A DNA stretch of 64,000 nt from Chthoniobacter sp. (GTDB lineage Bacteria > Verrucomicrobiota > Verrucomicrobiia > Chthoniobacterales > Chthoniobacteraceae): the NCBI RefSeq assembly GCF_040003245.1, contig NZ_JBDUCX010000002.1:1519-65518 (forward strand). The letters are read 5' to 3'. Both the position numbers and the translations under genes were made by a program. Shown in pieces: positions 49,341-64,000 of this stretch. Below the pieces are notes generated by a model, which worked only from the letters and a program-made list of their open reading frames with translations, did no database searches and had not been told where the DNA came from. Positions within the stretch are counted from its first letter, which is position 1. Every line of letters starts with the position of its first letter.

Positions 49341-50819
49341 ATGAATACCAGCGGCCTTCTCCGAAAACACTGGTTTCACGTCTCGATGCATTTCGTGACG
49401 GACGCCCTGCTTTTCACCCTGGCGTTCGTTACGGCCATGTTTCTTCGTTTCGGCGGCGAAAGCGCCGGATCGCTTTGGGCGCATTGGCCCTTCTTCATTT
49501 TCGGCGGCATCGTCTTTTCCGCGACCATTTACATCGCCGGCCTTTACTCCACACACAGCGCCGGCCGCGGTGTCTTGGAACGCTCCCTGGTGTTGGTCGT
49601 CTGCGTGCTCCTCGCCGTCCTCATTGTCATTGGCGGCACTTACTTGAATTCCGCCCGTCCCTTGGGCCGCGGCATCATGCTGCTGGCCGCGATCACTTCC
49701 TACCTCACGGCGTTGCTCCACCACATCGTCATCGTGCACGATCTGCGCAATTCCAAGGAGCGCGTCGTCTACGTCGTCTGCAGCGCGTTCGACGAGGCGG
49801 AGACCCGCCTCTTCGCAAGCTTCGGCGGACGCAATCTGGAATTCGCCGGGGTGGTCCTCTACGGCGCCTATCGGCCGAAGAGCAATCTGCGCGTGCTGGG
49901 GACCGTCGAAGACCTCGCCGCGATCGTCCAAAAGGAGAAAATCTCCCGCGTGCTCTGCACCCACAAGAGCATGGGTGACACCACGCTCACCCGGCACTTC
50001 TGCAAACTGCGCTATTCCGGCATCTCGGTGATGCCTCTGGTTTCCCTCTGCGAGGAGATCGAGCAGTACGTCCCCCTGGAATTGATCAGCTCCGAGTGGC
50101 TGCTCAATGCCAGCGGTGAGCCCCAGCACATTTACATCAAGAAGCTCAAGCGGCTCTTCGACATTGTTTGCTCCGCGATCGGCCTCACCCTCGGCCTGCC
50201 CGCCGTGGCCCTGGCCGCCGTCGCCATCCGGCTCACTTCCCCGGGCCCGATCTTTTACCGGCAGACCCGCAGCGGCCGTTTCGGACGCGCTTTCCAGATG
50301 ACCAAGCTGCGCACCATGCACGTCAATGCCGAGAAGGACGGCGCGGTCTGGAGCGGCAAGGACGATCCGCGGGTGACGTTCGTGGGCCGCACGCTCCGCC
50401 GCTACCGCATCGATGAGATCCCGCAGCTCTGGCACGTGCTCTGTGGCCACATGTCCTTCGTCGGTCCGCGCCCCGAGCGCCCGGAAATCATCACCCAGCT
50501 CGCCCGCGAAGTTCCCTATTACGAAGAGCGCCTCATGGTGCAGCCGGGTCTCACCGGCTGGGCGCAGGTCAGCTATCCCTACGGCGCCTCCGCCCTCGAT
50601 TCCCGGCGCAAGCTGGAATACGACCTCTACTACATGAAACACATGAGCTTGTTCCTCGATGTGTTCATTCTCCTCGATACCGTCCGCATCATCCTCACCG
50701 GCGGCGCCCAACCGGCCACCCGCGCCATCACCGCCGACGAAACGATCCAGGAGTGGGAGCGCCTCAAGGAACAGCCCGCCCCCTCGACCAAGCCCAAGCT
50801 GGAACTCGAAACGGCGTAG
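49341..50819 (+). CDS. Priming polyprenyl-phosphate glycosylphosphotransferase (WcaJ/EpsB-like)
   Basis: Four N-terminal TMs; KRLFDI, KLRTM, DPRVT.VG..LRRYRIDEIPQLW, MSFVGPRPE, PGLTGWAQV, DLYY. Confidence 0.93.
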   Translation: MNTSGLLRKHWFHVSMHFVTDALLFTLAFVTAMFLRFGGESAGSLWAHWPFFIFGGIVFSATIYIAGLYSTHSAGRGVLERSLVLVVCVLLAVLIVIGGTYLNSARPLGRGIMLLAAITSYLTALLHHIVIVHDLRNSKERVVYVVCSAFDEAETRLFASFGGRNLEFAGVVLYGAYRPKSNLRVLGTVEDLAAIVQKEKISRVLCTHKSMGDTTLTRHFCKLRYSGISVMPLVSLCEEIEQYVPLELISSEWLLNASGEPQHIYIKKLKRLFDIVCSAIGLTLGLPAVALAAVAIRLTSPGPIFYRQTRSGRFGRAFQMTKLRTMHVNAEKDGAVWSGKDDPRVTFVGRTLRRYRIDEIPQLWHVLCGHMSFVGPRPERPEIITQLAREVPYYEERLMVQPGLTGWAQVSYPYGASALDSRRKLEYDLYYMKHMSLFLDVFILLDTVRIILTGGAQPATRAITADETIQEWERLKEQPAPSTKPKLELETA

Positions 50820-50910
50820 GGTTGGCCTGAACTTAGGAAACTGAGGACTTCGGTGGGGCCGCAGGCAGTGCCTTTAGGGATTGTCCCACAGAAAGCGCGC
50901 GCCCGAGGGC

Positions 50911-50996
50911 GGTGTAATCCTGAAATCTTGTAATCCTGTAATCCTGTCTAAAAAGGGGAGACAGGATTGACCAGATTATCAGGATTTCAGGATTAC
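50911..50996. repeat. Imperfect palindrome built from AATCCTG units (REP-like)
   Basis: GTAATCCTGAAATCTTGTAATCCTGTAATCCTGTCT...AGACAGGATTGACCAGATTATCAGGATTTCAGGATTAC; a degenerate relative lies at about 63195-63285. Confidence 0.8.
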
Positions 50997-51064
50997 GCGC
51001 ACCCACCTGCGATGATAGTTCCCGAACGCCAGGAGGGGAAGCCAGCAGCGCCGCTGAAGTTCTC

Positions 51065-51556
51065 TCAACGCGAGCCAGGGCTCACGGCGCGCTCGATATC
51101 TGCGATGACGATTTTTTTCATCTCGAACATCGCGCGCATGGCGTTGGCGGCGATCGTGCGATCCTCGCCGGAGATCAATTCCAGCAACCGGGCGGGGGTG
51201 ATCTGCCAGGCCAATCCAAACCGGTCGATCAACCAACCGCAGGGACGTTCTTCGCCGCCCTCGGTGAGCTTGCTCCAGAGCTCATCGATTTCGCCTTGGG
51301 TTTCGCATTCGACGAGGAGCGAGATCGCGTCGGTAAACTGGTTATCCGACCCCGCGTTCATGGCATAGAATTGCTGACCAGCCAGCTCGAAGGTGACGAG
51401 CATGACCGTCCCGGCGCGGTCGGGAACGGCGTCCGGGTAGCGGGTGATGGCGACGATGCGGCTGTTGGCAAACAGGGAGGTGTAGAAGCGGGCGGCTTCT
51501 TCGGCCTGGGTCTCGAACCAGAGGAACGTGGTGATTTTTTGGCGGAGCTGGATCAT
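51065..51556 (-). CDS. VOC/PhnB-like protein (3-demethylubiquinone-9 3-methyltransferase family)
   Basis: Start re-called to ATG 51556; QKITTFLWF..QAEEAA.FY.SLF, AISLLV.CETQ.EID..W..L, CGWLIDRFGLAWQI. Confidence 0.88.
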   Translation of the reverse strand: MIQLRQKITTFLWFETQAEEAARFYTSLFANSRIVAITRYPDAVPDRAGTVMLVTFELAGQQFYAMNAGSDNQFTDAISLLVECETQGEIDELWSKLTEGGEERPCGWLIDRFGLAWQITPARLLELISGEDRTIAANAMRAMFEMKKIVIADIERAVSPGSR

Positions 51557-51710
51557 TTTCGTTTCGGTTTTCGCATGGGAGGAGATGGATGCGTGCGGTT
51601 CAGATCCGGGCATGGAAACCCCGTACCTGTTTAGCCGAGCGCAGAGAAGAAGTCCAAGCCAGCCCAAGCACGGCAGCGCCTACGCCCTGCTGCTCCTTCC
51701 GCCATTCCAT

Positions 51711-52220
51711 CCATTTTGAGGCCGCAAAGTGAGATTTTCCGCAATGGAGCCCATAGAGCCAATGGAGCAATGCACTTTTTTCGCCGAGTCATGCCACACT
51801 TCCCCGCATGAACACCGAGGACTTTCCACCACGCCCCCCACCACCAGGCCGCCCACTTCCCAGCGACTATGTAGGAATCAGGAAAGCAGGAGCCGAGACT
51901 TGGCGAACCGCAGATGATGCCAGGGCGGAGGCGTGCAGCCCGATGCCGAAGGCATCCCAGCGCCCATAGCCGGTGGTTGAGCGAAGCGACACCACCGGAA
52001 AGGATGCGGCAAAACGGCTCACCCCAAGGGGATGGCAGCCCTTGTTCAATTCAAGCCGAATCAAGGTAAATCAAGGCAATCAAGGTGCGAAAAAATGGGC
52101 AGCAGTACTGGACAACCGCGCTCGAGGGCCGACGTACGTCAAGAGGTCCCGTGGGCGAAGAAAAGGAGCCGTTTTAAGGTGCCTTAAGCCCTCTTAAGCC
52201 AATTTAAGGTGCGAGTTTTT
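51711..52220 (+). repeat. Modular non-coding element, copy A
   Basis: Co-linear with the reverse complement of 63047-63869; includes a 43-bp block with 1 mismatch (52173-52215 vs 63055-63097) and a 25-bp identical block TCAAGCCGAATCAAGGTAAATCAAG. Confidence 0.88.
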
Positions 52221-52253
52221 AAAAAACAGCGGTCTTGGACCCTTGAATACTGC

Positions 52254-53318
52254 CTAGCCGACCGTCTCCCCCGCGGACCCGAAGGCCTGCGTGATCCAGC
52301 GGCGCATCTGCTTCGCCGGGCGGATGTGCTCGAGATAGTACGCATGGTTCGCCCGCGACATCGCCCGCGCTTCCTCGTCGTTTTCCAGAAGACGCACACA
52401 ATGCACCACACATTGCTCCGGCGTCTCATACTCCCGGTAATTGCGCGGCGCGGTAAATGGCTCGACCAAGGTATGGCGAAATCCGGAAGCCACGATGCAC
52501 ATCGAAGCCGCCGTGTACTCACCCAGCTTCCAGGCCATGGCGTGATGCAGGCCCTTCGTATAAATTCCCACCCGGCACGTCTGCATCGTCTTCAAATATG
52601 CGGAACGCCGGGTGTCCCAATGGCAGACGACATCGGGATACTTCTCGCGCGCGAAGGGCGTCGGCACGGCTCCACCCACGAAGCGTTCCCCCAGTTCCTT
52701 GCGCAAGGCGCGCACCACCCCCACGCGCTCCTCGTTGATCTCCGGGGCAAACGGCGCGCCGGTCACTTCCGACTCCATCCACAGCCGCGTCTGGAGCAGA
52801 ACGCGCGGCGGCAGATCGTGGTCCGGCGGTCGCTCAAAATCGCGAGTGACCGGCAGCCGCAAATAATCGCTCAAATGACGCAGGCTCTCCTTCGCCCGCT
52901 TCGGTCGCTGGCTCGCGTAGCGCACCCAACCCGCGAGCAGCGACAGCATGCCCCGGCGATTGCCGGGTCCGAAGATGGGGCCGAATGGCGAGACCTTGCA
53001 GCGCGCTTCGGGCTCCAGCTTGGCGACATCCGGTGGGTAGTGGCTGCGCTTGAAATACACGTCACTGGCGCGCAGTTCCGCTGCACTGAAAAGGTAACTG
53101 CGGTCGTGAATATCGAAGCACACCCGGAGCCGCGCACCGTCCGCGATGCGCTCGATTTCAGTGACGATCGTGTACTCCTCGACCTGGCTGCGCGCGTCCC
53201 ACGACAGCTCGATCTCCCCGGCTTGCGCCAGCTCGAGGAACGCGGTGTAGAGGTAGAAGACCTGCGTCGATTCCAGCAGCGGCAGCAGCGACGCCGAGAC
53301 GCGATAGGCGGCAGCCAT
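52254..53318 (-). CDS. Hypothetical protein with GT-B-like C-terminal region
   Basis: Start re-called to ATG 53318; DVYFKRS, YL..MQ.CRVGI...GLH...WKLGEY resemble Glyco_trans_1_2-type proteins. Confidence 0.55.
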   Translation of the reverse strand: MAAAYRVSASLLPLLESTQVFYLYTAFLELAQAGEIELSWDARSQVEEYTIVTEIERIADGARLRVCFDIHDRSYLFSAAELRASDVYFKRSHYPPDVAKLEPEARCKVSPFGPIFGPGNRRGMLSLLAGWVRYASQRPKRAKESLRHLSDYLRLPVTRDFERPPDHDLPPRVLLQTRLWMESEVTGAPFAPEINEERVGVVRALRKELGERFVGGAVPTPFAREKYPDVVCHWDTRRSAYLKTMQTCRVGIYTKGLHHAMAWKLGEYTAASMCIVASGFRHTLVEPFTAPRNYREYETPEQCVVHCVRLLENDEEARAMSRANHAYYLEHIRPAKQMRRWITQAFGSAGETVG

Positions 53319-53322
53319 CCCG

Positions 53323-54423
53323 CTAGTAGATTTCCACCGGCGAGCGCTTGCCGTCCTCGGGGCTGCGCTGCCCCGCCGCCTCCGCGCCGAGCACCGCCAC
53401 GCGCAAGTCCAACACTTCCGCATCGCGACGCGCAAATTCGGCTTCGCTCCACGCATCGGGCGGCGACTGCTTCGCCTTGAATTTCGCGACGTTCTCCAGC
53501 GCCCGGTCCAGGTCCGCCGCCGGCAGGCCCGCCAGGTAGCCATGCGCCTCCTCGACCACGGCCACCCGGTGGCAGATCATCGCCAGGTCATTGCCCGCCG
53601 TGATAGCCAGCCGGATCGTCTCCTCGAGCCCGTAGTGATTCAGGATCGCCCCCATGTCGAGGTCGTCCGTCATCACCAATCCTTGGAAGCCCTGCTCGCC
53701 ACGGAGCAGGTCGGTGATCACCCGGCGCGACAGCGAGGACGGCGTCTTCGAGCTTTCCAGCGCGGGATAAAAGCCGTGGCCGATCATCATCGAGTCGACT
53801 TTGTCCGCAAAATGCCGGAAGACGGCCAGTTCGTGGGTCTCGAGCTCCTCGCGGCTCAAGGCAATCTCCGGCAATTCGTGGTGGGCATCCAGCGGGGCGC
53901 GCGAGTAGCCGGGGAAATGTTTGCCGCAGCTCAGGATGCCGCCGGCGCGCAGGGCGTCGTTGAAGGCCCCGGCGTTGCGATTGACTTGGGCGACGTCGTT
54001 GCCATAGCAGCGGCCGCGCAGGGAATTGTCCGCCTCGTCGTCGAACGAAATGTCCAGCACCGGGCACAGGTCGAGGTTGAAGCCGAAGATACGCAACAGC
54101 CGGGCGGTGATCGTGCCGTGGCGGGCGATCAGGCTGAGGTCGTTCTTGTCACGCAGGTCGTTGGCATTCGGCGGCTCGTTGCCCACGAGTTTCAGGCGCG
54201 AGACGCGGCCGCCTTCCTGGTCGATGGTGATGATCGGCTCGACCACCGAAAGGTCGCGCAGGTCATCGATCAGCTTGCGCAACTGGCCAGCCGTCTTGAT
54301 GTTGCGTCCGAAAAGAATGTATCCACCGGGCTGCAACTTGCGAAACTGCGCAGCGGTGGCGGCATCGAGTTCCGGGCCGGGGACGCCGGTGAGGAGTAAT
54401 TGACCAAGGGAAGATCGTTCCAT
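53323..54423 (-). CDS. nagZ: Beta-N-acetylhexosaminidase (GH3)
   Basis: ILFGRN, IDQEGGRVSR, CPVLD, CGKHFPGY, MTDDLDM, D.HHELP. Confidence 0.88.
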   Translation of the reverse strand: MERSSLGQLLLTGVPGPELDAATAAQFRKLQPGGYILFGRNIKTAGQLRKLIDDLRDLSVVEPIITIDQEGGRVSRLKLVGNEPPNANDLRDKNDLSLIARHGTITARLLRIFGFNLDLCPVLDISFDDEADNSLRGRCYGNDVAQVNRNAGAFNDALRAGGILSCGKHFPGYSRAPLDAHHELPEIALSREELETHELAVFRHFADKVDSMMIGHGFYPALESSKTPSSLSRRVITDLLRGEQGFQGLVMTDDLDMGAILNHYGLEETIRLAITAGNDLAMICHRVAVVEEAHGYLAGLPAADLDRALENVAKFKAKQSPPDAWSEAEFARRDAEVLDLRVAVLGAEAAGQRSPEDGKRSPVEIY

Positions 54424-54498
54424 ATAGCCAGCGCAGCGTAGCGATTCAGCAAAGCAAACCTACTTTTTTTCGCGGAAGAATCGAAATTCGAACATCCC

Positions 54499-55077
54499 AT
54501 GCGTCTCGCCCTTTACGGAGGAACTTTTGACCCGGTGCACCACGGGCACCTCGTTCTGGCGCGCGATGCCCTCGAGGAGCTCCAGCTCGACCGCGTCATC
54601 TTCATCCCCGCCGGCCTCTCCCCCCACAAGCTTGCCACCTCTCCCGCCCCGGCTGCCCTGCGCCGCGAGATGCTCGCCGCCGCCCTCGCCGATGAACCCG
54701 GTTTTACTCTGGATGACTCGGAACTGAACGCCACCGGCCCCAGCTTCACAATCGATACCGTGGAACGCGTCCGCGGCATTCATCCCGAGGCGCAAATCTA
54801 CTACCTGATCGGCGCCGACAACCTCCGCGAACTGCACACCTGGCGCCGCATCGAAGACCTGCGCCGCCTCGTCGAATTCGTCGTTTTCGGCCGCGGCGAT
54901 GCTGCCGCAAAAGGCACTGCGCCCTTCCGTACGCTCTCGCGCCGGATCGATATCTCCGCGACAGAAGTCCGCCAACGGGTTGCACGCGGGGATTCCATCC
55001 GCTATCTCGTTCCGGAGCCCGTGCGCTCCCTTATCGCCGCCCATCACCTTTACCAGGACCCGCCCCATCAAATCTGA
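54499..55077 (+). CDS. nadD: Nicotinate-nucleotide adenylyltransferase
   Basis: GGTFDPVHHGH, SPHK, SFTIDT, IGAD, ISATEVR. Confidence 0.95.
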   Translation: MRLALYGGTFDPVHHGHLVLARDALEELQLDRVIFIPAGLSPHKLATSPAPAALRREMLAAALADEPGFTLDDSELNATGPSFTIDTVERVRGIHPEAQIYYLIGADNLRELHTWRRIEDLRRLVEFVVFGRGDAAAKGTAPFRTLSRRIDISATEVRQRVARGDSIRYLVPEPVRSLIAAHHLYQDPPHQI

Positions 55078-55414
55078 CTCCCTCGCCCGCCTCTGCGCCA
55101 AGATCATCGCCGAGAAAAAAGCCGAAGACATCGTCGCCATCGACCTCCGTGGTATTTCCACTTTCACGGATTTCTTCGTCATTTGTTCCGGCACCTCCGA
55201 GCCGCACCTCAAAGCCATCGCCGGCGAATTGCGCGATCGCTTGAAAGAAGACCACGACATCAAGCCCTTCGCCGTGGACGGCTTCCCGACCAGCCAATGG
55301 ATCGTCGCCGACTACTCCGGCGTGATCGTGCACATCTTCCACCACGAGAAGCGTTCCTTCTACAGCCTCGAGGACCTGTGGAGCGACGCTCCCCGGCTCA
55401 AGCTCAAGGTGTGA
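55067..55414 (+). CDS. rsfS: Ribosome silencing factor (start codon uncertain)
   Basis: EKKAEDIVAIDL, DFFVICSG.S..H.KAI, WIVADYSGVIVHIF...RSFYSLEDLW; follows nadD. Confidence 0.9.
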   Translation: MKSDSLARLCAKIIAEKKAEDIVAIDLRGISTFTDFFVICSGTSEPHLKAIAGELRDRLKEDHDIKPFAVDGFPTSQWIVADYSGVIVHIFHHEKRSFYSLEDLWSDAPRLKLKV

Positions 55415-55596
55415 GCTACCTCGTCGAAACTGAAGTCGGCTGCCCGTGGTGCGGCGAGTATTTCCCGACGACCGTCGACACCTCGCAGGGCGACTACAAC
55501 ACCATCGAGGACTGCAACGTCTGCTGCCGCCCCATCTCGCTCACCATCACCTGCGAGCCGGGCGAACTGACGGACGTGCAGGCGGAGCGGGCCTGA
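55411..55596 (+). CDS. CPXCG-motif cysteine-rich small protein
   Basis: GTGA overlap with the rsfS stop; CPWCGE...EDCNVCCRPI. Confidence 0.85.
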   Translation: MSYLVETEVGCPWCGEYFPTTVDTSQGDYNTIEDCNVCCRPISLTITCEPGELTDVQAERA

Positions 55597-55694
55597 TTCT
55601 GGAATCGCGGAGCGAGCGAGGCGTGGCAAACGTCGCCCCGCGACGCATGAACCTAACTTTACCGAACCCGACGAGGTTCTGCAGGGATACCCAC

Positions 55695-57158
55695 ATGAGA
55701 TCGCCCCTCCCCACTTTCGCGGCTCGCCTGTCGATTCTGCTCTCGGCGGTTCTTTTGACGGCCCAAGCCCTGCAGGCCGCGGAACGCCTGCCTAACGTGA
55801 TCCTCATCGTCGCGGATGATCTCGGCTATGCGGATGTCGGCGTGTACGGCGCGCAGGGGTTTGCGACGCCGAACTTCGACCGGCTCGCGCAGGAGGGGCG
55901 GCGCTTCACGGACTTCCACGTCGCGCAGGCGGTATGCTCGGCGTCGCGCGCGGCCATCATGACGGGTTGTTATCCCAATCGCATCGGCATCGAGGGCGCG
56001 ATGGAGCCGTGGTATAAATTCGGTATCAACGAGCACGAGCTGACGATGCCCCAGATGTTCCAGCAAAAGGGCTACGCGACGGGCATGGTGGGCAAATGGC
56101 ACCTCGGCACACCGACGGAATTCCTGCCCACGCACCGCGGGTTCGACGAGTGGTTCGGCCTGCCCTACTCGAACGATCAATGGCCGTTGCACCCGGAGAA
56201 GCCCGGGAAATTCCCACCGTTGCCACTCTACGATGGCGACAAGATCGTCAATCCCGGCATCAGCCATCGCGACATGGAGCAGCTCACGACGCAATACACG
56301 GAGCGGGCGGTGAGCTTCATCGACCGCAACCACGACAAGCCCTTCTTTCTCTACGTCGCGCAGACCATGCCGCACGTGCCGCTGGCCGTGAGCGAAAAGT
56401 TCCGCGGCACAACGAAGCGCGGCCTCTACGGCGATGCGGTCGAGGAAATCGACTGGAGCACCGGCGAGATCCTGACGGCGCTGAAAAAGCATGGCCTGGA
56501 AAAGGACACCATCATCATCTTCCTCTCCGACAACGGCCCGTGGCTCATCTTTGGGAACCACGCCGGCTCGGCGTATCCGCTGCGCGAAGGCAAAACGACG
56601 ACGTGGGACGGCGGCACGCGCGTGCCGTTCATCATTTCGTGGCCGGGACACATCCCCGCCGGCACCACGTGCGACGAGATGGCCTGCGCGATCGATCTGC
56701 TGCCGGCCCTGGCGAAGCTCATCAGCGCCAAGTTACCCGACCACAAGATCGATGGCCTCGACATCTGGCCCCTGCTGGCCGGGGACAAGGACGCCAGGAA
56801 TCCGCACGAGGCCTATTTCTTCTACGGCGTTCCGTTTGGCAGTTGGAGCGGGGCGGAACTCGAATCCGTGCGCTTGCGCGAGTGGAAGCTCATCCTGCCG
56901 CACACCTTCCGCACGCTCGGCGGCCACAAGCCCGGCATGGACGGCTGGCCCGCCGAGTATGTGAAGCAACCCATCCTCGAGCCGGAACTCTACGACATGC
57001 GCAACGACATCGAGGAAAAGCACGACGTCGCCGGGCAGCACCGGGAAATCGTGAAACACCTGCTCGACCTGGCCGAGCAATGCCGCATCGACTTGGGCGA
57101 CACCACGCTCAACCGCAAAGGAATGGGCGTGCGCGCACCGGGCGGGGTCAAGGACTGA
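55695..57158 (+). CDS. Arylsulfatase A-like sulfatase (formylglycine type)
   Basis: Signal peptide; PNVILIVADDLGY, CSASRAAIMTG, GKWHLG, PHVP, SDNGP, GGTRVP; start re-called to ATG 55695. Confidence 0.92.
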   Translation: MRSPLPTFAARLSILLSAVLLTAQALQAAERLPNVILIVADDLGYADVGVYGAQGFATPNFDRLAQEGRRFTDFHVAQAVCSASRAAIMTGCYPNRIGIEGAMEPWYKFGINEHELTMPQMFQQKGYATGMVGKWHLGTPTEFLPTHRGFDEWFGLPYSNDQWPLHPEKPGKFPPLPLYDGDKIVNPGISHRDMEQLTTQYTERAVSFIDRNHDKPFFLYVAQTMPHVPLAVSEKFRGTTKRGLYGDAVEEIDWSTGEILTALKKHGLEKDTIIIFLSDNGPWLIFGNHAGSAYPLREGKTTTWDGGTRVPFIISWPGHIPAGTTCDEMACAIDLLPALAKLISAKLPDHKIDGLDIWPLLAGDKDARNPHEAYFFYGVPFGSWSGAELESVRLREWKLILPHTFRTLGGHKPGMDGWPAEYVKQPILEPELYDMRNDIEEKHDVAGQHREIVKHLLDLAEQCRIDLGDTTLNRKGMGVRAPGGVKD

Positions 57159-57230
57159 TCGCATCGCCAGCAGAACGGGATGTTCCGCATTGCATCCGCC
57201 GCTCATCTCCGCATCGTCGTCGACCACCTC

Positions 57231-58466
57231 ATGCGCATCGAAGTCCTCAATACCGGTACGGAACTGCTCCTCGGCAGCGTGCTCAACACCCACCTGCAGT
57301 TTCTCGCCCAGGCATTGTTCCCACTCGGCTTGCGCATCGAGCGCCAGGTGACCGTGCCCGATGGCGACGCCATCCGCGTGGCGGTCGCCGAAACCTTCGG
57401 CCGCGCCGAGGTGGTGCTGATCACCGGCGGGCTGGGCCCGACCACGGATGACATCACCCGCGAGGCGGTCGCCGAGTTGCTGGGCCTCGAACTGATCCAT
57501 GATGAAACGGTCATGGCCGCCATCGAACGGCGCTTCGCCCGGCGCAATCTGACCATGAGCGCGCGCAATGCCCGGCAAGCGCAGCGCCCCGCGGAGGCCA
57601 TCGTCCTCCACAATCCTAACGGCACCGCCCCAGGGCTCTACCTGGCGGCGCGCCCGCACGGGACGATCACCACGCCGCACCTTTTCCTGCTGCCCGGTCC
57701 GCCGCGCGAATTGCAGCCCATGGTCACCGATCAAGTGCTGCTGTTGCTGGCCAAGCTGCTGCCGGCGCGCCCGGCGGTCGAGATGCGCGTCGCGCGCATT
57801 GCCGGCCTCGGCGAATCGGCCGTGGAGGAATTGGTCGGGGGACCGCTGCTCGCCCTGGGCCTCGAGCTGGGCTATTGCGCGCGTCCCGGCGAGGTGGATC
57901 TGCGCACCATCGGCTCGCCCGCGATCCTCGATCAAGCCGGGCGGATCATTGCCGAAAAGCTCGGCCCCCACATCGTTTCCCATGATCAACGCCCCCTGGA
58001 AAAAGTGCTCGTCGATCTGCTCACCGAGCGCGGCGAGACCCTCGCCTGTGCGGAATCCTGCACCGGCGGATTTCTCGCGCACCGCATCACCAACGTGCCA
58101 GGAGCCTCGGCTGTCTTCCTCGGCGGTTACGTCACCTACGCCAACGCGGTCAAGACGAGCGCGCTCGGGGTCGATGCGGGGCTCATCGAAGCCCACGGGG
58201 CCGTGAGTGAGCCCGTCGCCGTCGCCATGGCGGAAGGCGCCCGCCAAAAGGCCGGTGCGGACTACGCGCTCTCCACGACGGGCATTGCCGGCCCAGACGG
58301 AGGAAGCGAGGAAAAGCCCGTGGGCACCGTCTTCATCGCCCTGGCCGGGAAAATGGGTGCGACCCTCGTCGAGCGAAACCGCTTTCCCACCGATCGCCAG
58401 ACCTTCAAGGATCTCGTGAGCCTCACCGCCTTTGAACTCCTCCGCCGCCAGCTTACTGCTCGATGA
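57231..58466 (+). CDS. cinA: CinA (MoCF-like domain plus PncC NMN deamidase domain)
   Basis: MRIEVLNTGTELLLG, TGGLGPT.DDITRE, NGTAPG, LPGPPREL, AESCTGG, STTGIAGP.GG; start re-called to ATG 57231. Confidence 0.93.
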   Translation: MRIEVLNTGTELLLGSVLNTHLQFLAQALFPLGLRIERQVTVPDGDAIRVAVAETFGRAEVVLITGGLGPTTDDITREAVAELLGLELIHDETVMAAIERRFARRNLTMSARNARQAQRPAEAIVLHNPNGTAPGLYLAARPHGTITTPHLFLLPGPPRELQPMVTDQVLLLLAKLLPARPAVEMRVARIAGLGESAVEELVGGPLLALGLELGYCARPGEVDLRTIGSPAILDQAGRIIAEKLGPHIVSHDQRPLEKVLVDLLTERGETLACAESCTGGFLAHRITNVPGASAVFLGGYVTYANAVKTSALGVDAGLIEAHGAVSEPVAVAMAEGARQKAGADYALSTTGIAGPDGGSEEKPVGTVFIALAGKMGATLVERNRFPTDRQTFKDLVSLTAFELLRRQLTAR

Positions 58467-59073
58467 CGGCCGACGTGCCGACTTTCACCTTCTGGTAGAT
58501 CAACGGGGCAATATCCGCCGGCAAACGCACACAGCCGTGCGAGGCCGCATACCCGGGCAGGATGCCGACATGCATGCCCACACCGCCACTCGTCAGGCGG
58601 CAAAACCACTTCATCGAGGCGCCCACGTAGTGCGTGCCGCTCGGCGCCGAGTCAATCTGCGTGCTCACCCCCGAACGGACCGTGCGGCCACTGTGGTCCA
58701 CGAAATCGCCGTAGATGCTCGAGCGGTGGTTCGGATCTTTTTCCATCACGTGCCACGAGCCGGCGGGCGTCTCGTGCCCCCGCTTGCCCGAGGAGATCGG
58801 CGAATCGATGTAGATTTGGTCCCCCACCATCAAATAGACGCGCTGCTTGCTCAGCGAGACGATCACGTGGGAGTTGTCCGGGGTGATCACCGACTCCAGG
58901 CTCTTGTCGATCTTCGGGCCCGGCTGCCCGCGACGGATCAAGTCCGACGGCTTTTTCATCGGGGGGCCGGGATTTCGCGACCCGAAGAGTTGCGCCGACG
59001 CCTGTTGCTCGAAGACACCAAAAGTGCAAAAAAGGACGGCTAGGAGCGGTTTGAAGTAGCCAGCGAATCTCAT
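58453..59073 (-). CDS. L,D-transpeptidase (YkuD family)
   Basis: Signal peptide; VSLSKQR, SPISSGK, TPAG, GMHVG....ASHGCVRL. Confidence 0.88.
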   Translation of the reverse strand: MRFAGYFKPLLAVLFCTFGVFEQQASAQLFGSRNPGPPMKKPSDLIRRGQPGPKIDKSLESVITPDNSHVIVSLSKQRVYLMVGDQIYIDSPISSGKRGHETPAGSWHVMEKDPNHRSSIYGDFVDHSGRTVRSGVSTQIDSAPSGTHYVGASMKWFCRLTSGGVGMHVGILPGYAASHGCVRLPADIAPLIYQKVKVGTSAVIEQ

Positions 59074-59204
59074 GCGTCGGAAAAAGTTGCTGTTTCATAC
59101 GGAGCCTGCCGCGCGGCGGCAATCACATAAATCGCGCCCAGTTTGAAAGCCGTGGTGAAAAGTTTTGGACGTGAACGCCGGTTCACAGCAACGTTGTCGC
59201 CGTC

Positions 59205-61028
59205 GTGCCCCTAACCATCCCCCGCCTCTCTCTGATTTTCTACGTGCTTTGCCTTGGCCTCGGGGTTCCGGTTCATGCCGAACGCAAGCCGGCGGTCATC
59301 GTCGGGGCCGCCCCACCGCAGCCGGTCGAGTTGAACATCAAGGTTCGGCGCGAAGGCAAAACGGAAATCCCCCTGCGTATCTACGGCAAAGCCGGTGAGC
59401 CCTTGAAATATCTCATTCGCGTTCCTCCCGCGCATGGGCGCCTTTCCGATCCACGGGCCACGGAGCGTGAAGTTTCCGTCGTCGTCTACGAACCGCCGGC
59501 CGATCTCGGCATCACGACGGACAAGTTTTCCTTCGCCGTCCAGAGCGCCGTTGGGGTTTCCGCGGCGGTCGAGGTGGCGATGACCATCGTCGATCAACCT
59601 CCCCAGCTCGCCATCCAGGACGCCATCGATTTCTCCACCGTCCGCGCGGGGGCCAGCAATTTCCGCCTGCTGGAGATCAGCAATCATGGCGGCCTCATCG
59701 CCTCGGGCGATGTCATCGTGGACCCACCGTGGAAGATCGACGGCAAGGCCGGCTACCGCCTGCGCAACGGCGATGTGGCCGTGTTCAAGATCGTCTTTTC
59801 GCCCAGCGTCGGCGGAAAATTCGAGGGCGTGGCGCGCTTCACCTCCGAGCCGGAGCACAGCACCACCTTGCGCGGCGTCTCCGAATCGGCCATCACCGCG
59901 GAGCCCGCTCAATGGGTCTTGCAGCAGATTCCCGGCGATTCCACCCGCTCCGGCAACTTCGAGCTCACCAACCAGCTCGACGAACCGCGCACGCTCCGCC
60001 TGAAAACCGACGCGCGCCTCAAGATTCCCGCGCAGGTCACCATCCCGCCCCACGGCCGGGCCACGATCCCGGTCGAGGCTTCGTCCCAGGACGCGCAGGC
60101 GATGGACACGGAGATTCAGCTCGAGGCCAGTGATTTTTCCATCGCCATCCCGGTGCGTGTGCCCGTGCTTGCCGCCGTGTTTCGAGCGACCACCCCCCTC
60201 GTGTCGTTTGGACGCCTCGCCGCCGGACACCCCGCCAGTGCTCGCTTCCAGTTGGAAAACATCGGCGGGACGTCGGGCAAAGTGTCGTGGGAAATCATCC
60301 CGCCCTTCCGGGTGACGGAGAACTCGGCGACGATTCAGCCGGGCGATAAGAAGGAATTCCCCGTCGAGATCGAGAGCACGGTCCCCGGCCGATATCGCAC
60401 TTGGCTAAAACTCCGGGCCGGTGATCAATCGTTCGACATCCCCGTAGAGGCCGAAGTGGCCGGCGCCGCACGATCATCGACCCGCATGGCCGGCGTGCCT
60501 GGCAGCACGGCCACAGTCGACCTCAGCGCTTTGCCCGAGCCGCCGGAGGCCACTCCTGTCGTGGCCACTCCTCTCATCCCCTTCGATTGGGACATGGACC
60601 CCCGGGTGCCGAGTGGCGTGGAAGTCTCCCAAATCACCCCGACGAGTGCCATCGTCGAATGGCCGGCCGTCCTCTCTCCGGCAGCGCGTTTCCGCGTGGA
60701 CATGCGGCAACTCAAGGTCGATCCCGATGGCAGGATCGAGACCATCTGGCTCCAGCCCACCGGCATTCCCATTGAGGCTCGCGGGAAAAATTACGCCGCT
60801 ATCCTCACCGGTCTACAGCCCGGCGAGCCGTGGGCGGTCCGCATCATGACCCTGCCCCCCAGCGGCGAAGCAACCCGACTCTTCACCGTGACTTTTCAGA
60901 CTCCACCGAAAACGGCGCTGCTGGCGCAATTGCCCAGGCCCTCGCTCCTGCAATGCCTGCTGGTCGCCTTGCTCGGCCTCGCGGCCTGGCACGGCTGGCA
61001 GTGGTGGCGGCGGCGCCCAGTGATCTGA
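59205..61028 (+). CDS. Secreted or type I membrane protein with tandem Ig-like domains and an FN3-like domain
   Basis: Signal peptide; beta-sandwich segments (L.ISNHGG, F.LENIGG), ITPTSAIVEWP...GLQPGEPW; C-terminal TM plus RRR. Confidence 0.65.
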   Translation: MPLTIPRLSLIFYVLCLGLGVPVHAERKPAVIVGAAPPQPVELNIKVRREGKTEIPLRIYGKAGEPLKYLIRVPPAHGRLSDPRATEREVSVVVYEPPADLGITTDKFSFAVQSAVGVSAAVEVAMTIVDQPPQLAIQDAIDFSTVRAGASNFRLLEISNHGGLIASGDVIVDPPWKIDGKAGYRLRNGDVAVFKIVFSPSVGGKFEGVARFTSEPEHSTTLRGVSESAITAEPAQWVLQQIPGDSTRSGNFELTNQLDEPRTLRLKTDARLKIPAQVTIPPHGRATIPVEASSQDAQAMDTEIQLEASDFSIAIPVRVPVLAAVFRATTPLVSFGRLAAGHPASARFQLENIGGTSGKVSWEIIPPFRVTENSATIQPGDKKEFPVEIESTVPGRYRTWLKLRAGDQSFDIPVEAEVAGAARSSTRMAGVPGSTATVDLSALPEPPEATPVVATPLIPFDWDMDPRVPSGVEVSQITPTSAIVEWPAVLSPAARFRVDMRQLKVDPDGRIETIWLQPTGIPIEARGKNYAAILTGLQPGEPWAVRIMTLPPSGEATRLFTVTFQTPPKTALLAQLPRPSLLQCLLVALLGLAAWHGWQWWRRRPVI

Positions 61029-61077
61029 CTGCAAATCCCTCTCGACGCCGGCGAGTGCGTTGCAAGATTCTGACCCG

Positions 61078-62205
61078 ATGCAAGTCCCTCTTCTCGATCT
61101 CAAGCTCCAGTACGCTCCGCTCAAGGCCCAACTACTGAAGGAGATCGAAGCCGTCGCCGATTCCCAGGCCCTCCTGCTCGGGCCGCAGACCGAGAAGCTG
61201 GAAAAGGCGGTCGCCGCTTATTGCGGCGCGGGCCACGCCATCGGTGTCTCCTCAGGCACCGACGCCCAGCTCGTGCTCCTCATGGCGCTGGGGATCGCCC
61301 CGGGCGACAAGATCATCACCACCCCATACACTTTTTTCGCGACCGCCAGTTGCGTGGCGCGCCTCGGAGCGACCCCGATTTTCGTCGATATCGATCCCGT
61401 CACTTTCAATATCTCGGTCCCGGCCCTCGAAGCGGCCCTCGCCCGCACGCCCGACGCAAAAGCCATCATCCCGGTGCACCTCTATGGCCAGTGCGCCGAC
61501 ATGGCGGGCATCATGGCCTTGGGAAAAAAATACGGCGTCCCCGTGCTGGAGGACGCCGCCCAGGCGCTCGGCGCGCGGCATCCTCTCGGCGCGGCGGGGG
61601 CGATCGGCGAAGCGGGCTGGTTCTCTTTCTATCCGACTAAGAATCTCGGGGCCTTCGGCGATGCCGGCATGGTCGTGTGCCAGGACGCGGCGCTCGCGGC
61701 GAAAATCCGGGCGCTGCGCAATCACGGGATGGAAGTGCGCTATTTTCACAAGTGGATCGGCGGCAATTTCCGCATCGATGCCATCCAATCCGCCGTGCTC
61801 AACGTGAAGCTGCCGCATCTCGATGAATGGGGCGCCGGACGTCGCGCCCGCGCCGCCTTCTACCGCACCGCCTTCGCCGCCCATACCCTGCCGATCACGC
61901 TCCCTGCGGAAGTGTATGCCGATAGCGGAGTGGCGAATCACCACATCTACAACCAGTTCATCATCCGCGCGCCGCGGCGCGAAGACCTGCGCGCCCATCT
62001 CACGAAGGCCGGCATCGCCACGGAAATCTACTATCCGCTGTCGCTGCACATGCAGGAGTGCTTCGCGTATCTGGGCCATCGCGAAGGCGAATTCCCCGAG
62101 TCCGAACGCGCCGCCAAGGAAACCCTCGCCCTCCCCATCTTCCCCGAGCTCACCGAAGACCAGCAAGCCTACGTCGTCGCGCAGATCGCCGCCTTTTACC
62201 AGTAA
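61078..62205 (+). CDS. DegT/DnrJ/EryC1/StrS PLP-dependent aminotransferase
   Basis: VPLLDL, SSGTDA, VHLYGQ, EDAAQA, SFYPTKNLGAFGDAG, NFRIDAIQ. Confidence 0.92.
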   Translation: MQVPLLDLKLQYAPLKAQLLKEIEAVADSQALLLGPQTEKLEKAVAAYCGAGHAIGVSSGTDAQLVLLMALGIAPGDKIITTPYTFFATASCVARLGATPIFVDIDPVTFNISVPALEAALARTPDAKAIIPVHLYGQCADMAGIMALGKKYGVPVLEDAAQALGARHPLGAAGAIGEAGWFSFYPTKNLGAFGDAGMVVCQDAALAAKIRALRNHGMEVRYFHKWIGGNFRIDAIQSAVLNVKLPHLDEWGAGRRARAAFYRTAFAAHTLPITLPAEVYADSGVANHHIYNQFIIRAPRREDLRAHLTKAGIATEIYYPLSLHMQECFAYLGHREGEFPESERAAKETLALPIFPELTEDQQAYVVAQIAAFYQ

Positions 62206-62212
62206 GAGGTAA

Positions 62213-62311
62213 TTCGCGCCAAGGACGCCAGGCTCGCCAAGGACGCGAGCAAAGCGACCAGTTGAAAAGCCCCCTTTAGTTCCTTGGCGCCCTTAGCGTT
62301 CTTGGCGCGAA
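62213..62311. repeat. Imperfect palindrome of CGCCAAG units (REP-like)
   Basis: TTCGCGCCAAGGACGCCAGGCTCGCCAAGGA ... TCCTTGGCGCCCTTAGCGTTCTTGGCGCGAA, just after the aminotransferase stop. Confidence 0.8.
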
Positions 62312-62354
62312 ACCCAAACTCGACGGGCGGCGGCTAATTAACCATCCTGACGCC

Positions 62355-62900
62355 ATGCGTTCCTCCCTTGTTCTCCTGATCGCCCTCGCCGCGTTCATCA
62401 GCGGCCACGCGTCCGCTGCGGACAAAAAGCCCGTCGATCCTGCCTTGGTGCGCACCTTCACCGCGAAGCAATCGATCAAGCTCGGCGACGCCGTGGCCAG
62501 CTTCGTCATCGATCTCATCCACAAGGACACCGCCGGCGTGCAGCAGGCCTACGCGAAGCTCACCGCCGACACCGAAGCGGACGCGGGTGGGCGCTACGAG
62601 ACGCACCCCTTCGAGGGCATCCAGTGGTTCGTCGTCGAAGTCTCCTGGGACAATGCCGACAAATACAATACATCCGAGGAAGGCGAATACATCTACCTCG
62701 CCCGGCAGCAACTCGTCTCCGGCATCCATCGCGGCTATGGCGTGCCCACCAACGTCGTCGCCCAGGTCCGCGTCGTCACCTCCTTCGCCGGCAAAGCCGC
62801 CAAATCACTCAAGCCCGACCAAGTCGCCCCCGGCACGAAGATCACCCTCACCTTCGAGGGCTTCCTCGACAAGATTCCGCTGACCCTCCTGCACAACTGA
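62355..62900 (+). CDS. Secreted hypothetical protein
   Basis: 181 aa, clear signal peptide (ASA|AD), C/G-ending codons like neighbouring genes, no recognised domain. Confidence 0.7.
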   Translation: MRSSLVLLIALAAFISGHASAADKKPVDPALVRTFTAKQSIKLGDAVASFVIDLIHKDTAGVQQAYAKLTADTEADAGGRYETHPFEGIQWFVVEVSWDNADKYNTSEEGEYIYLARQQLVSGIHRGYGVPTNVVAQVRVVTSFAGKAAKSLKPDQVAPGTKITLTFEGFLDKIPLTLLHN

Positions 62901-63046
62901 TACCCCGTCCGCTCAAAGTAGGCTGGACCACCTTCGCGCCCATCGGCAAACCAGATGAAGTGTCCTATTTTGGAGATTGAGCCCACTCCCGACGGCTCGC
63001 TGGCGGGGCGTTAGCCCCCAAGCGGAAGCTTGGCGGTGAAGGTCTC

Positions 63047-63869
63047 AAAAAAATCTCGCACCTTAAATCGGCTTAAGAGGGCTTAAGGCACCTTAAATCC
63101 GCAGCCTTTTTTTGCCGAGAGGCTTCCGATCTGGCTCGAGCAGGCCCCGGGGCGACAACCGAAATACGAGAATCAGCGGCGGAAGTCGCCTGCCCCGTAT
63201 CCTGAATCTCCTGAGAATTTGGCAATCCCGTCTGCCGCCTTTAGACAGGATTAGCGGACTCAACAGGATTCCAAGATTACACCGTCCTTGGGATACGCCC
63301 TTTCTGTTGCCGAGCAGGCACATGAGAAAACTCGGGACCTTGAGAATGCTTGATTTACCTTGATTCGGCTTGATTCCCGCGACCGCTGCCACCCCTTTGA
63401 GGTGCGCCGTTTCGGCATCATTTCCGATGGCGTCGCTTCGCTCAACCACCGGTTATGGGGCGCGGGGATGCCTCCCGCATGAAATTTGGGGATTCATACC
63501 GCCCTTTTGTAGTCAACCTGACGGAACCACGTGACCCTGGTCTCCGAAGAGGAATCAATCAGGAACCGGGCGAACCACCTCCGCCCGCCTCCGGGATTTG
63601 ACCCATCGCACCCTGAGCGTTTATGCCTCGCGCCTCCGCCCACGGCATTATCTGCGGTTGGCCCAGCCTCGGCTTCTACTTCCTGCTTTCCTGCTTTCCT
63701 GATTCCTAAATAGCAGACGGAAAGTGGACGGCCCGGCGGTGGTGGGCGTGGTGGAAAATCCTCGGAGTTCATGCGGGCAAGTGTGGCATAACCCGGCGGA
63801 AAATGTGCATCGCTCCATGGGTTCCATTGGCTCCATTGCGGAAAATCCACTCGGCGCCCCTCAAAATGG
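63047..63869 (-). repeat. Modular non-coding element, copy B (inverted, with two insertions relative to copy A)
   Basis: Reverse complement aligns block by block with 51711-52220; extra segments at about 63100-63335 and 63480-63625. Confidence 0.88.
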
Positions 63870-63884
63870 GCCATCCACCGCGTC

Positions 63885-64000
63885 GGGGCACCGCTTAAAG
63901 ACCGCCGAAGCGTTGGTGCGGACGGGACTGGCGGAAACCGGGCTCGCCGAAGAGGACCTGGCCGGGTTGCCCGGCAGCGATCCTCGCAAGGTCCGCATCG
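63885..64000 (+). mobile_element. Probable C-terminal fragment of an IS200-like/RAYT tyrosine transposase, truncated by the window end
   Basis: Open frame GHRLKTAEALVRTGLAETGLAEEDLAGLPGSDPRKVRI resembles from memory the ..DL....K(G/S)DPRKV.IA tail of such transposases; no start codon seen, only about 38 aa visible. Confidence 0.45.

Follow-up and report, generated by a model that had tools for sequence, protein, structure and literature searches.

Two inverted intergenic repeats of a Chthoniobacter genome are shrunken copies of a single-gene cassette and probable members of a miniature mobile element family

Introduction

Two diverged copies of a modular sequence (copies A and B) lie in opposite orientation, about 11 kb apart, in a 64,000-nucleotide stretch of a Chthoniobacter sp. 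genome, hereafter the window, raising the questions of what the modules are, whether the two copies stand alone, and how they came to occupy their sites. The initial annotation, made from the letters of the window, had described them as an element assembled from REP-like modules. In this work, we characterized both copies together with their relatives in the same genome, a draft of 408 contigs (90.6% complete) in which several element copies are found at contig ends, and in 28 congeners.

Results

Collinearity of copies A and B

The inverted arrangement proposed in the initial annotation was confirmed by a repeat search of the window and by BLASTN, both copies being collinear (Table 1) with 80-89% identity in blocks. 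The repeat search recovered six inverted pairs whose order is the same in A and B, including 51733-51891/63689-63847 (159 nt, 86%), 51963-52012/63410-63459 (88%), 52012-52075/63349-63412 (81%) and 52154-52220/63050-63116 (87%). By joining such pairs, BLASTN produced three collinear blocks, namely A 51711-51933 with B 63869-63631 (80%), A 51943-52075 with B 63480-63349 (83%), and A 52158-52220 with B 63113-63050 (89%). All the motifs previously named were located at their expected places in both copies: CCATTTTGAGG, the 9-mer array with its T-tract, TAGGAATCAGGAAAGCAGG, AACCGCAGAT, the CCGGTGGT..ACCACCGG hairpin, and the TCAAG and TTAAG arrays; the similarity continues for about 30-35 nt past the T-tract. 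Copy B does carry the two extra inserts reported for it, and the second holds a 79% relative of the AATCCTG palindrome listed in Table 1.

Table 1. Features of copies A and B and of the block that contains copy A, in window coordinates
Feature	Position	Strand	Description
Copy A	51711-52226	+	Collinear with copy B
Copy A 5' fringe (CCATTTTGAGG...GTGAGA)	51711-51734	+	Weakly conserved; mean pairwise identity 0.34-0.42
Copy A head core	51735-51781	+	TTTTCCGC, three 9-mers (AATGGAGCC type), ATGCAC and T6; pairwise identity 0.82-0.90 among copies
Copy A leader (GTCATGCCACACTTCCCCGC) and ORF remnant	51788-51871	+	ATG at 51808, then frameshifted codons 1-21; identity 0.67-0.78 vs other element copies
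Copy A truncated block X (AGGAAAGC array-palindrome repeat)	51872-51935	+	Only the first ~60-80 nt left
Copy A three-hairpin REP-like unit	51936-52040	+	Nested in ORF remnant
Copy A hairpins	hp1 51942-51956, hp2 51970-51998, hp3 52020-52033	+	
Copy A TCAAG array and A-tract	52046-52095	+	3' end region of ancestral gene
Copy A tail	52173-52226	+	Four TTAAG 10-11-mers, GCGAG, T/A tract; pairwise identity 0.83-0.95 among copies
Copy A post-tail extension	52227-52253	+	Up to stop codon (52254) of convergent glycosyltransferase gene
Copy B	63047-63869	-	Collinear with copy A, plus two extra inserts
Copy B 5' fringe and head core	63800-63869	-	TTTTCCGC 63845-63838; 9-mers 63837-63811; ATGCAC and T-tract 63810-63800
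Copy B leader and ORF remnant	63709-63792	-	ATG at 63772, frameshifted codons 1-21
Copy B complete block X	63482-63708	-	3' part (63482-63630) is the first extra insert
Copy B three-hairpin REP-like unit	63391-63481	-	
Copy B TCAAG array	63339-63378	-	
Copy B second extra insert	63114-63338	-	Includes AATCCTG-type array palindrome 63199-63288
Copy B tail	63047-63113	-	TTAAG array 63097-63055, T-tract 63059-63047
Block missing in at least 7 congeners	50820-52253	.	Palindrome, gene and copy A, with a convergent stop codon on either side
AATCCTG palindrome	50905-51000		Within block 50820-52253
3-dmu-9_3-mt-family gene	51065-51613	-	Within block 50820-52253

Derivation from a gene cassette and nested repeats

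Both copies retain 63 nt of an ORF start (51808-51871 in A, 63772-63709 in B), i.e., its first 21 codons with a common +1 frameshift at codon 6; in copy A this remnant was defined by alignment with intact and semi-intact cassette copies. The earlier description of the element as non-coding does not wholly apply to its origin, these codons being the beginning of a gene family. The consensus interior of the elements translates as MNSDDSH.ARHGKIAHFP.AIRQELNERL..., and tblastn with this interior gave 53 matches, about 19 of them to apparently intact paralogues of 210-350 aa, which are preceded by the head and have TCAAG/TTAAG-type arrays on their 3' side, these arrays overlapping or following the stop codon at C346, C207 and C284. 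The intact cassette (1.1-1.3 kb) consists of a leader with the 9-mer array, a gene of about 300 aa, the TCAAG/TTAAG arrays and a T-tract, and parent copies persist at C346, C120 and C99, among others. These alignments indicate that the head, the ORF remnant, the TCAAG array and the TTAAG tail derive from one cassette, of which they represent the 5' leader, the start of the coding region and the 3' flank, and that at least 69 shrunken copies of it are dispersed in the genome, A and B among them. A backbone built from unrelated REP-like modules can accordingly be set aside, given that the cassette is still intact in the genome and the backbone is its deletion derivative.

In length, the copies fall into a graded set: about 1.1 kb, 1160, 666, about 505 and about 252 nt. 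More than 20 short forms at unrelated loci have both the deletion junction and the length (~252 nt) in common, and the majority cluster together in the tree; their sequences indicate internal deletion as the source of the short forms. Pairwise identity reaches 0.82-0.95 at the ends vs 0.56-0.68 in the interior.

The view of a composite dispersed element with fixed module order, which accretes modules, was in turn upheld, as block X, the three-hairpin unit and the AATCCTG-type palindrome each represent a repeat family of their own, nested within the element. Stand-alone copies of block X occur at C386, C107, C44, C363 and C259; the three-hairpin unit occupies an identical position in 16 long-form copies and was found independently in congener G018, with hp2 widespread across the genus; the AATCCTG-type family comprises, besides 63199-63288 and 50905-51000, members at C339:605-692 and C193. 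The extra modules of copy B belong to independent families of small palindromic repeats that inserted into the element.

Family size and species restriction

Copies A and B are not the isolated pair first presented, since about 145 related loci exist in this genome; of the outcome that the initial annotation had named as refuting, only two copies aligning to a decayed protein-coding gene, the gene was borne out but not the number. The head motif was found 148 times here vs 0-8 times per genome in the 28 congeners, and the tail motif 69 vs 0-2 times. Heads contain from 1 to 10 9-mers (three in 107 copies), and the gene-less forms, of which at least 67 are complete, measure 183-820 nt and are all intergenic. 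This distribution indicates that the cassette family multiplied recently in one Chthoniobacter species, inserting between genes. No pair of assembled copies is more than about 85% identical, all copies being at least 15% diverged, and there is therefore no sign of current activity. The draft assembly may have collapsed young copies.

Filled and empty sites

Comparisons with congeners revealed empty counterparts of four sites, namely those of two short forms, of a full cassette and of locus A, each lying between convergent stop codons. The flanks of short form C71 are 338 nt apart here vs 30-46 nt in G024, G016 and G003; those of short form C274, 327 nt vs 24 nt in G018; those of full cassette C120, 1431 nt vs 117 nt in G018; and those of locus A, 1.43 kb vs 10-110 nt in 7 congeners. 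At C71, C274 and C120 the insertions fit exactly between the stop codons and brought no flanking DNA, while in all four comparisons target duplications or motifs were unreadable because the short spacers of the congeners are too diverged for base-level alignment. Copy B lies within DNA missing from G018, in a region that is locally duplicated and rearranged. At loci A and B the element arrived with or beside other genes, so these two sites do not establish that it inserted on its own in one step. The pair had also been considered a possible substrate for inversion, which found no support: the A-B segment is collinear and has the same orientation in G018, a genome with neither copy. One cassette was located at a synteny breakpoint.

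The cassette gene and its product

The cassette contains no transposase or recombinase gene, and its protein displayed neither a transposase domain or fold nor any catalytic fold, and matched no structure or profile significantly. The best score against PF11985 (phage Mu gp27) was 19.9 bits, below the cut-off of 28, spanning profile positions 1-161 of 173; sub-threshold matches (E<=0.1) were obtained in 8/32 family members, and the top match genome-wide was the cassette gene itself. The AF2 model (pLDDT 82) combines short helices at the N-terminus with very long ones, on the basis of which a small N-terminal HTH-like domain is predicted; the likeness of the protein to Mu gp27 is faint. The same head is found upstream of a Mu-type portal gene (PF06074, E 6.6e-75) and of a gpI protease gene (PF10123, 32.3 bits), and for this reason the cassette probably comes from a Mu-like head-morphogenesis gene set. 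No large terminase was found beside the cassette genes, paralogues and foreign homologues being flanked by unrelated housekeeping genes, and where the gene has homologues in other organisms, these do not carry the arrays.

Comparison with known element classes

In agreement with the initial annotation, the element differs from classical MITEs and BIMEs. It resembles MITEs and internally deleted IS derivatives in its small size (about 250-800 nt), high copy number, intergenic location, lineage-specific burst, size classes produced by internal deletion from a gene-bearing parent, conserved ends with degenerate interior, and filled and empty sites among relatives. However, the absence of terminal inverted repeats, already noted, was confirmed by the repeat search and consensus profiles, head and tail being unrelated sequences; no target-site duplication was seen, the congener spacers being unalignable, and the sole gene of the parent encodes a helical DNA-binding-type protein rather than a recognisable transposase. 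A classical MITE was rejected for lack of terminal inverted repeats and of a transposase-encoding parent. An IS110 DEDD transposase (PF01548) was not matched in this 90.6% complete genome, whereas control genomes gave matches.

A REP/BIME/REPIN unit, i.e., a GTAG-tagged imperfect palindrome of 20-40 bp, was likewise rejected, as the element (250-800 nt) is 10-20 times longer, non-palindromic, and has ends devoid of the GTAG tag; shared with REPIN-RAYT systems are the REP-like hairpins nested in or adjoining the element, the presence of Y1 genes, the lack of TIRs and of readable TSDs, and a preference for gene 3' ends (PMC3733652). Pneumococcal BOX elements, organized as boxA-(boxB)n-boxC, range from tens to about 640 nt and have no known dedicated transposase (PMC3049150). 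Similarly, our element is composite, with constant head and tail, a variable interior and a variable count of short tandem units (1-10 9-mers), but BOX elements have no gene-cassette origin and have a predicted stable RNA stem-loop (PMC3049150), whereas the middle of the element corresponds to an ORF remnant with nested foreign repeats, and no conserved stem-loop was detected: RNAalifold returned neither a consensus fold nor covarying structure, and the complementarity of the putative head stem was not copy-specific (own -13.1 vs cross -12.8 kcal/mol, p=0.27).

Rolling-circle elements of the IS91/ISCR/Helitron type share the sharp conserved 3' end, the lack of TIRs and of readable TSDs, and the fuzzy 5' side, which here sometimes takes in a REP, array palindromes, or the cargo genes of loci A and B. 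No Y2 HUH (PF04986) or Rep-type transposase was matched in the genome, a search to which the control genomes were likewise silent, and no ori/ter-like signatures were recognised.

Discussion

Considering these findings together, copies A and B are probably sister members of a miniature, non-autonomous mobile element family that underwent a burst in one Chthoniobacter species. Internal deletion of the cassette gave rise to discrete forms, a long one of about 505 nt and a short one of about 252 nt, which then multiplied as units; the three-hairpin unit, block X and the AATCCTG palindrome were inserted later in some lineages, hence the modular appearance. Copies settle in the spacers between genes, where they typically occupy the interval from one stop codon to the convergent next. 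Given their strong conservation, the head core and the tail may act in cis as sites that copying requires. They would probably serve as phased arrays to which a DNA-binding protein attaches, and the product of the cassette, acting in trans, is the most plausible such protein. The candidate cut-and-join enzymes, the only ones seen, are the RAYT/IS200-type Y1 transposases of the genome (Y1_Tnp, PF01797; 8 genes above cut-off). Alternatively, a host function instead of a mobility requirement could account for the conservation of the termini.

An odd intergenic pair thus becomes a defined repeat family with a traceable parent, a burst dated to one species within the genus, and clean filled and empty sites, illustrating a route to "modular" repeats by way of a gene cassette, deletion, and nested insertion of other small repeats. 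Since the parent has no recognisable transposase and yet insertion between convergent genes is precise, the family constitutes a tractable case in which a new trans-mobilisation route (e.g., by RAYT-type enzymes) or a new role of small-terminase-like proteins might be found. The family also disrupts genome assemblies in the genus, many copies being at contig ends, and serves as a marker of islands specific to the species and of at least one synteny breakpoint.

A different possibility, to which we assign a low probability, is that the arrays of head and tail (period of 9-11 bp, with a T/A tract) are selected in place as putative phased binding or bending sites, pac-like or regulatory, for the gp27-like/small-terminase-like family or a nucleoid protein, and matter without moving. 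The superior conservation of head core and tail is compatible with this, as are the recurrence of the array and T-tract layout, with other cores, beside other paralogues and elsewhere in the window, the protein model with its N-terminal HTH-like domain and long helices, and the precedent of the SPP1-type pac, in which direct repeats around the small-terminase start codon are read by an HTH-domain ring that selects bent DNA (PMC4737164). The cassette resembles the SPP1/SF6 pac sites in its short direct repeats, located where a small gene begins, and its product may, like the small terminases (PMC4737164), have an N-terminal HTH and an oligomerising helical region; its leader also precedes the Mu-type portal and gpI genes of this genome. 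Nevertheless, such host use leaves unexplained both the presence of about 70 copies at unrelated intergenic sites in a single species and the retention of a useless ORF remnant; the Pfam gp27 match is sub-threshold, the cassette genes have no neighbouring large terminase, and about 19 apparently intact stand-alone paralogues with some 70 scattered gene-less derivatives are unprecedented for pac sites.

More speculatively, and with a similarly small likelihood, the full cassette might represent a new kind of selfish element, whose sole gene encodes a Mu gp27/small-terminase-like DNA-binding protein wrapping the phased-array ends. Together with the stand-alone portal and protease genes bearing the same leader, it would form a dispersed phage-derived system in which cassettes and gene-less miniatures, devoid of an enzyme of their own, spread by hijacking Mu-like packaging/transposition machinery or a resident Y1 transposase.

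We consider it very unlikely that the copies are passive relics, in which a multi-copy gene family would have left prophage debris or segmental duplicates that decayed, scattered by ordinary recombination and rearrangement with no dedicated mobility. The pseudogene interior, the rearranged surroundings of copy B, the cassette at the synteny breakpoint and the divergence of at least 15% among all copies would be expected under such an origin, but the single junction and length of more than 20 short forms at unrelated loci, mostly clustering in the tree, the exact fit at C71, C274 and C120, and the selective conservation of the termini argue against it. Least credible of all are structured ncRNA genes, such as protein-sponge RNAs with repeated GGA motifs, transcribed from head to tail T-tract: the short repeated motifs do include GGA or AAGG, a T-tract is present at the 3' end and the orientation seems independent of adjacent genes (by a crude gene call), but no Rfam family was matched at gathering or E<=1, the folding results given above are negative, neither a sigma-70-like promoter nor a canonical terminator was found, and the interior is a decaying ORF. 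Across the window Rfam gave 0 matches at gathering, and only chance miRNA-hairpin matches (E 0.014-0.9) on the palindrome.

The genome also harbors about 118 GTAG-tagged REPs, separate from the element and forming doublets. None of the 67 elements had REPs on both sides, and in 13/67 a GTAG-REP was located 15-77 nt upstream, always in identical orientation.

The inverted pair and its family

The two inverted copies of the non-coding element in the window, A and B, are probably sisters within a family of miniature elements, non-autonomous and derived from a Mu-like cassette with a single gene; this family would have undergone a burst in this species. The inverted relationship reported in the initial annotation is real and is now better explained than from the sequence alone: a repeat search linked 51733-52220 with 63050-63847 through six inverted pairs in consistent order (78-88% complementarity), BLASTN joined the copies into three collinear blocks (see the table), and all the motifs originally listed are present in both copies in identical order. 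The two extra segments described in copy B were likewise recovered, the second containing a relative of the palindrome found at locus A. The suggestion that the pair could be a substrate for inversion received no support, as no sign of inversion was found and the flanking and intervening genes are collinear and equally oriented in G018, the closest congener, which lacks both copies.

Dispersal of the element was also borne out, with ~145 loci found using copy A as query in the draft genome (6.68 Mb, 408 contigs, 62% G+C, 90.6% complete), in which the window belongs to contig C140. Sharp conservation was observed in two parts, namely a 5' head, composed of TTTTCCGC, a run of AATGGAGCC-type 9-mers, ATGCAC and a T-tract, and a 3' tail, composed of GATTTAAGGTGCCTTAAGCCCNCTTAAGCCGATTTAAGGTGCGAG and a T-tract. 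Motif scanning identified 148 heads, 107 of them with three 9-mers (range 1-10), and 69 tails; 67 head and tail pairs on the same strand span 183-1160 nt. Named homologues identify the genus as Chthoniobacter, and scans of 28 of its other species gave counts per species of 0-8 for the head motif and 0-2 for the tail motif, close to the reversed-pattern control; G018 is the only congener with a few occurrences. No earlier description of this family was found in the literature.

Coordinates in the window, size series of the family, and filled sites compared with congeners
Feature	Position or contig	Strand	Size, identity or comparison
Copy A	51711-52226	+	
Copy B	63047-63869	-	
Block 1	A 51711-51933 = B 63869-63631		80% (BLASTN)
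Block 2	A 51943-52075 = B 63480-63349		83% (BLASTN)
Block 3	A 52158-52220 = B 63113-63050		89% (BLASTN)
First extra segment of B	63482-63630		
Second extra segment of B	63114-63338		contains palindrome relative, 63199-63288 (79%)
Palindrome at locus A	50905-51000		
3-dmu-9_3-mt-family (PF06983) gene	51065-51613	-	
DegT-type aminotransferase gene end, 181-aa gene	62030-62204, 62343-62906		
Their duplicates (window-equivalent, past window end)	65646-65820, 65991-66554		91%
Y1-like fragment, running past window end	63897-64000	+	83% (DNA) to C263:1212-1413
Miniature units with other cores	11489-11580; 11129-11171		
Full cassette			~1.1-1.3 kb
Deletion derivative	C206		1160 nt
Deletion derivative	C125		666 nt; ORF 179-199 aa, reads into tail
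Long form			~505 nt
Short form			~252 nt; codons 1-27 fused to pre-tail sequence, single common junction
Short form, filled site	C71		flanks 338 nt apart vs 30-46 nt in G024, G016, G003
Short form, filled site	C274		flanks 327 nt apart vs 24 nt in G018
Full cassette, filled site	C120		flanks 1431 nt apart vs 117 nt in G018
Locus A, filled site	sugar-transferase/glycosyltransferase genes		1.43 kb apart vs 10-110 nt in at least 7 congeners

The backbone as a shrunken gene cassette

The backbone of the element is a shrunken gene cassette. Alignment of the two commonest size classes, the short and long forms, revealed a conserved ATG downstream of the head and an interior translating as MNSDDSH.ARHGKIAHFP.AIRQELNERLATGERSQRLVKWLNSLP..., a peptide which in tblastn searches matches 53 places in the genome, ~19 of them apparently intact genes of 210-350 aa. 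In one subfamily (contigs C99, C120, C346, C288, C108, C207, C261 and C385) the head lies directly upstream of the gene, which accounts for many of the apparently solitary heads, and TCAAG- or TTAAG-type arrays lie downstream; on C346, a four-unit array followed by a T-tract displays an architecture identical to the tail. The full cassette and its derivatives constitute a deletion series (see the table), within which A and B retain 63 nt of the ORF start, with a common +1 frameshift at codon 6 and an identity of 0.67-0.78 to the other copies in this remnant. In a tree of the shared regions, A, B and the copy on C309 group together. A 62-aa ORF across the head of A and B was rejected, since its stops are not the same and the heads vary in the length of the T-tract and the number of 9-mers.

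Among the short forms and among the long forms, mean pairwise identity reaches 0.82-0.95 in the head core and tail, 0.56-0.68 in the interior, and just 0.34-0.42 in the outermost 20 nt of the 5' side. Judged from sequence comparison, this pattern shows signs of cis-acting ends, and uniform pseudogene decay would not yield it. Most short forms cluster together in the tree, as expected if one deletion product then multiplied. Across the shared parts, no pair of assembled copies is more than ~85% identical; since several copies fall at the ends of contigs, younger ones may be absent from the draft.

Nested repeats

Accretion of modules, as put forward in the initial annotation, applies to the extra modules, because each of them is a foreign repeat nested in the element, and not to the backbone, which is the gene cassette. 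In 16 long-form copies, the three-hairpin unit (105 nt, including CCGGTGGT..ACCACCGG) always occupies the same site and cuts the ORF short; G018 has the unit independently of the element, and the middle hairpin is found widely across the genus. Block X (~205-240 nt, with AGGAAAGC units in inverted arrays) stands alone on contigs C386, C107, C44, C363, C259 and others, and within the family is found only in A, B and the copies on C74 and C309, being whole in B and limited to its first 60-80 nt in A. The palindrome in the second insert of B belongs to a small family with members at locus A and on C339 and C193. Thus, the modular look of A and B corresponds to a cassette derivative decorated by nested palindromic repeats.

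Filled and empty sites

At every insertion site, the additional DNA occupies the space separating two convergent stop codons. The congener spacers are short and diverged, so that a target duplication or motif is not readable; similarity among copies stops ~30-35 nt beyond the T-tract. The 1.43 kb at locus A holds the palindrome, the PF06983 gene and copy A, and copy B is located within DNA absent from G018, along with a duplicate of the 181-aa gene preceding it, a Y1-transposase-like 3' fragment, and further genes. Both loci share a layout in which the tail forms the outer boundary and the extra genes lie on the side of the head. Orientation statistics came from a crude codon-usage gene caller; a check of one locus (C71) showed them to be unreliable there, and they were used only loosely.

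The duplicated segment, comprising the aminotransferase gene end and the 181-aa gene, is single-copy in G018, and its second copy lies ~3.6 kb downstream, the pair bracketing copy B and two genes. The Y1-like fragment, directly beside the head of B, resembles the 3' portion of a Y1 (RAYT/IS200-like) transposase gene coding for 340 aa, and no Pfam domain was found in it. For the intact cassette on C207 (L094, ~4800-5800), no empty site was found, each congener having the two flanks unlinked, on separate contigs; hence, either the cassette marks a synteny breakpoint or the contig is chimeric.

The cassette protein and its probable phage connection

No Pfam domain above threshold was found in the cassette protein, and searches against Pfam, NCBIfam and PHROGs returned faint matches only. 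The only recurrent signal was Phage_Mu_Gp27 (PF11985), matched at E<=0.1 by 8 of the 32 family members (best E 7.6e-4), and the best PF11985 match genome-wide is the C207 cassette gene (19.9 bits over profile positions 1-161 of 173, below the cut-off of 28); in addition, one PHROG small-terminase family matches the protein with an E of 0.004. The AlphaFold (AF2) model is all-helical (pLDDT 82), with a small N-terminal bundle followed by helices as long as 80 residues and a disordered tail; Foldseek retrieved no significant match to it in PDB and BFVD, and the family profile matched no PDB sequence.

The head was also found upstream of Mu-type portal genes on C263 (PF06074, E 6.6e-75), C92 and C3, and of a Mu gpI-type protease gene (PF10123, 32.3 bits). 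The portal genes of C92 and C3 stand alone, with housekeeping-gene neighbours and no prophage. Contig C263 (L045, 6.6 kb) carries, in addition to an HTH gene, one head with a Mu-type portal gene (776-850 aa) and another with a Mu gpI-type protease gene, as well as two transposase genes of the Y1 type.

In other organisms, the homologues likewise stand alone between housekeeping genes and are devoid of AATGGAGCC and TTAAG arrays, for which reason the view of the arrays as intrinsic to the gene family was rejected. Further paralogues encoded here have arrays built on alternative cores (TAATCGTGCC, CATCCAA, GACAAT, AATCGCACCC and CCAGTTCCGA). The most interesting option, raised here as a possibility, is that a small-terminase-like protein with phased arrays represents a new type of selfish cassette.

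The window also holds miniature units of the same architecture and other cores. The one at 11489-11580 has two of the alternative cores listed above and comprises CCAGTTCCGACCC, an ATG, ~15 codons, four CAATCG(T/C)GCC units and T6, with the leader core of the C241 paralogue and a 3' array like those after the C288 and C108 genes; tblastn detected no protein remnant in it.

Comparison with known element classes and candidate helpers

The family behaves like a MITE, but lacks the features defining that class, as there are no inverted termini, in agreement with the initial annotation, and no transposase-bearing parent. It also behaves like a BOX element, although the conserved fold that defines BOX is absent here; an RNAalifold run on 88 heads returned no consensus structure. 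As for an RNA reading, Rfam searches returned nothing real over the whole window (gathering threshold) or over 50800-52350 (E<=1), and neither a sigma-70-like promoter nor an intrinsic or canonical terminator was found within the elements at either copy. A head stem formed by GCGCAGAGTG and CACTTTTTGCGC was rejected, since arms from the same copy pair no more strongly than arms taken from different copies (p=0.27).

The genome encodes 8 Y1 (IS200/RAYT-type) transposases and contains ~118 GTAG-tagged REPs (GTAGGGCGCGTGTCCCCACGCGCC), arranged in typical inverted doublets with a spacer of ~30 nt (background in PMC3733652); together they amount to a textbook REPIN/RAYT system, here in a verrucomicrobial genome. 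A REP lies 15-77 nt upstream of the head in 13 of the 67 complete elements, in constant orientation, and the Y1 transposases and REPs are possible helpers of the family. The element as cargo between two REPs was rejected, none of the 67 being flanked on both sides. No IS110-type transposase was found in this genome (90.6% complete), and a search for Y2-type transposases drew no match here, nor in the control genomes. Many other 'array palindromes' of 8-10 nt occur downstream of genes throughout the genome.
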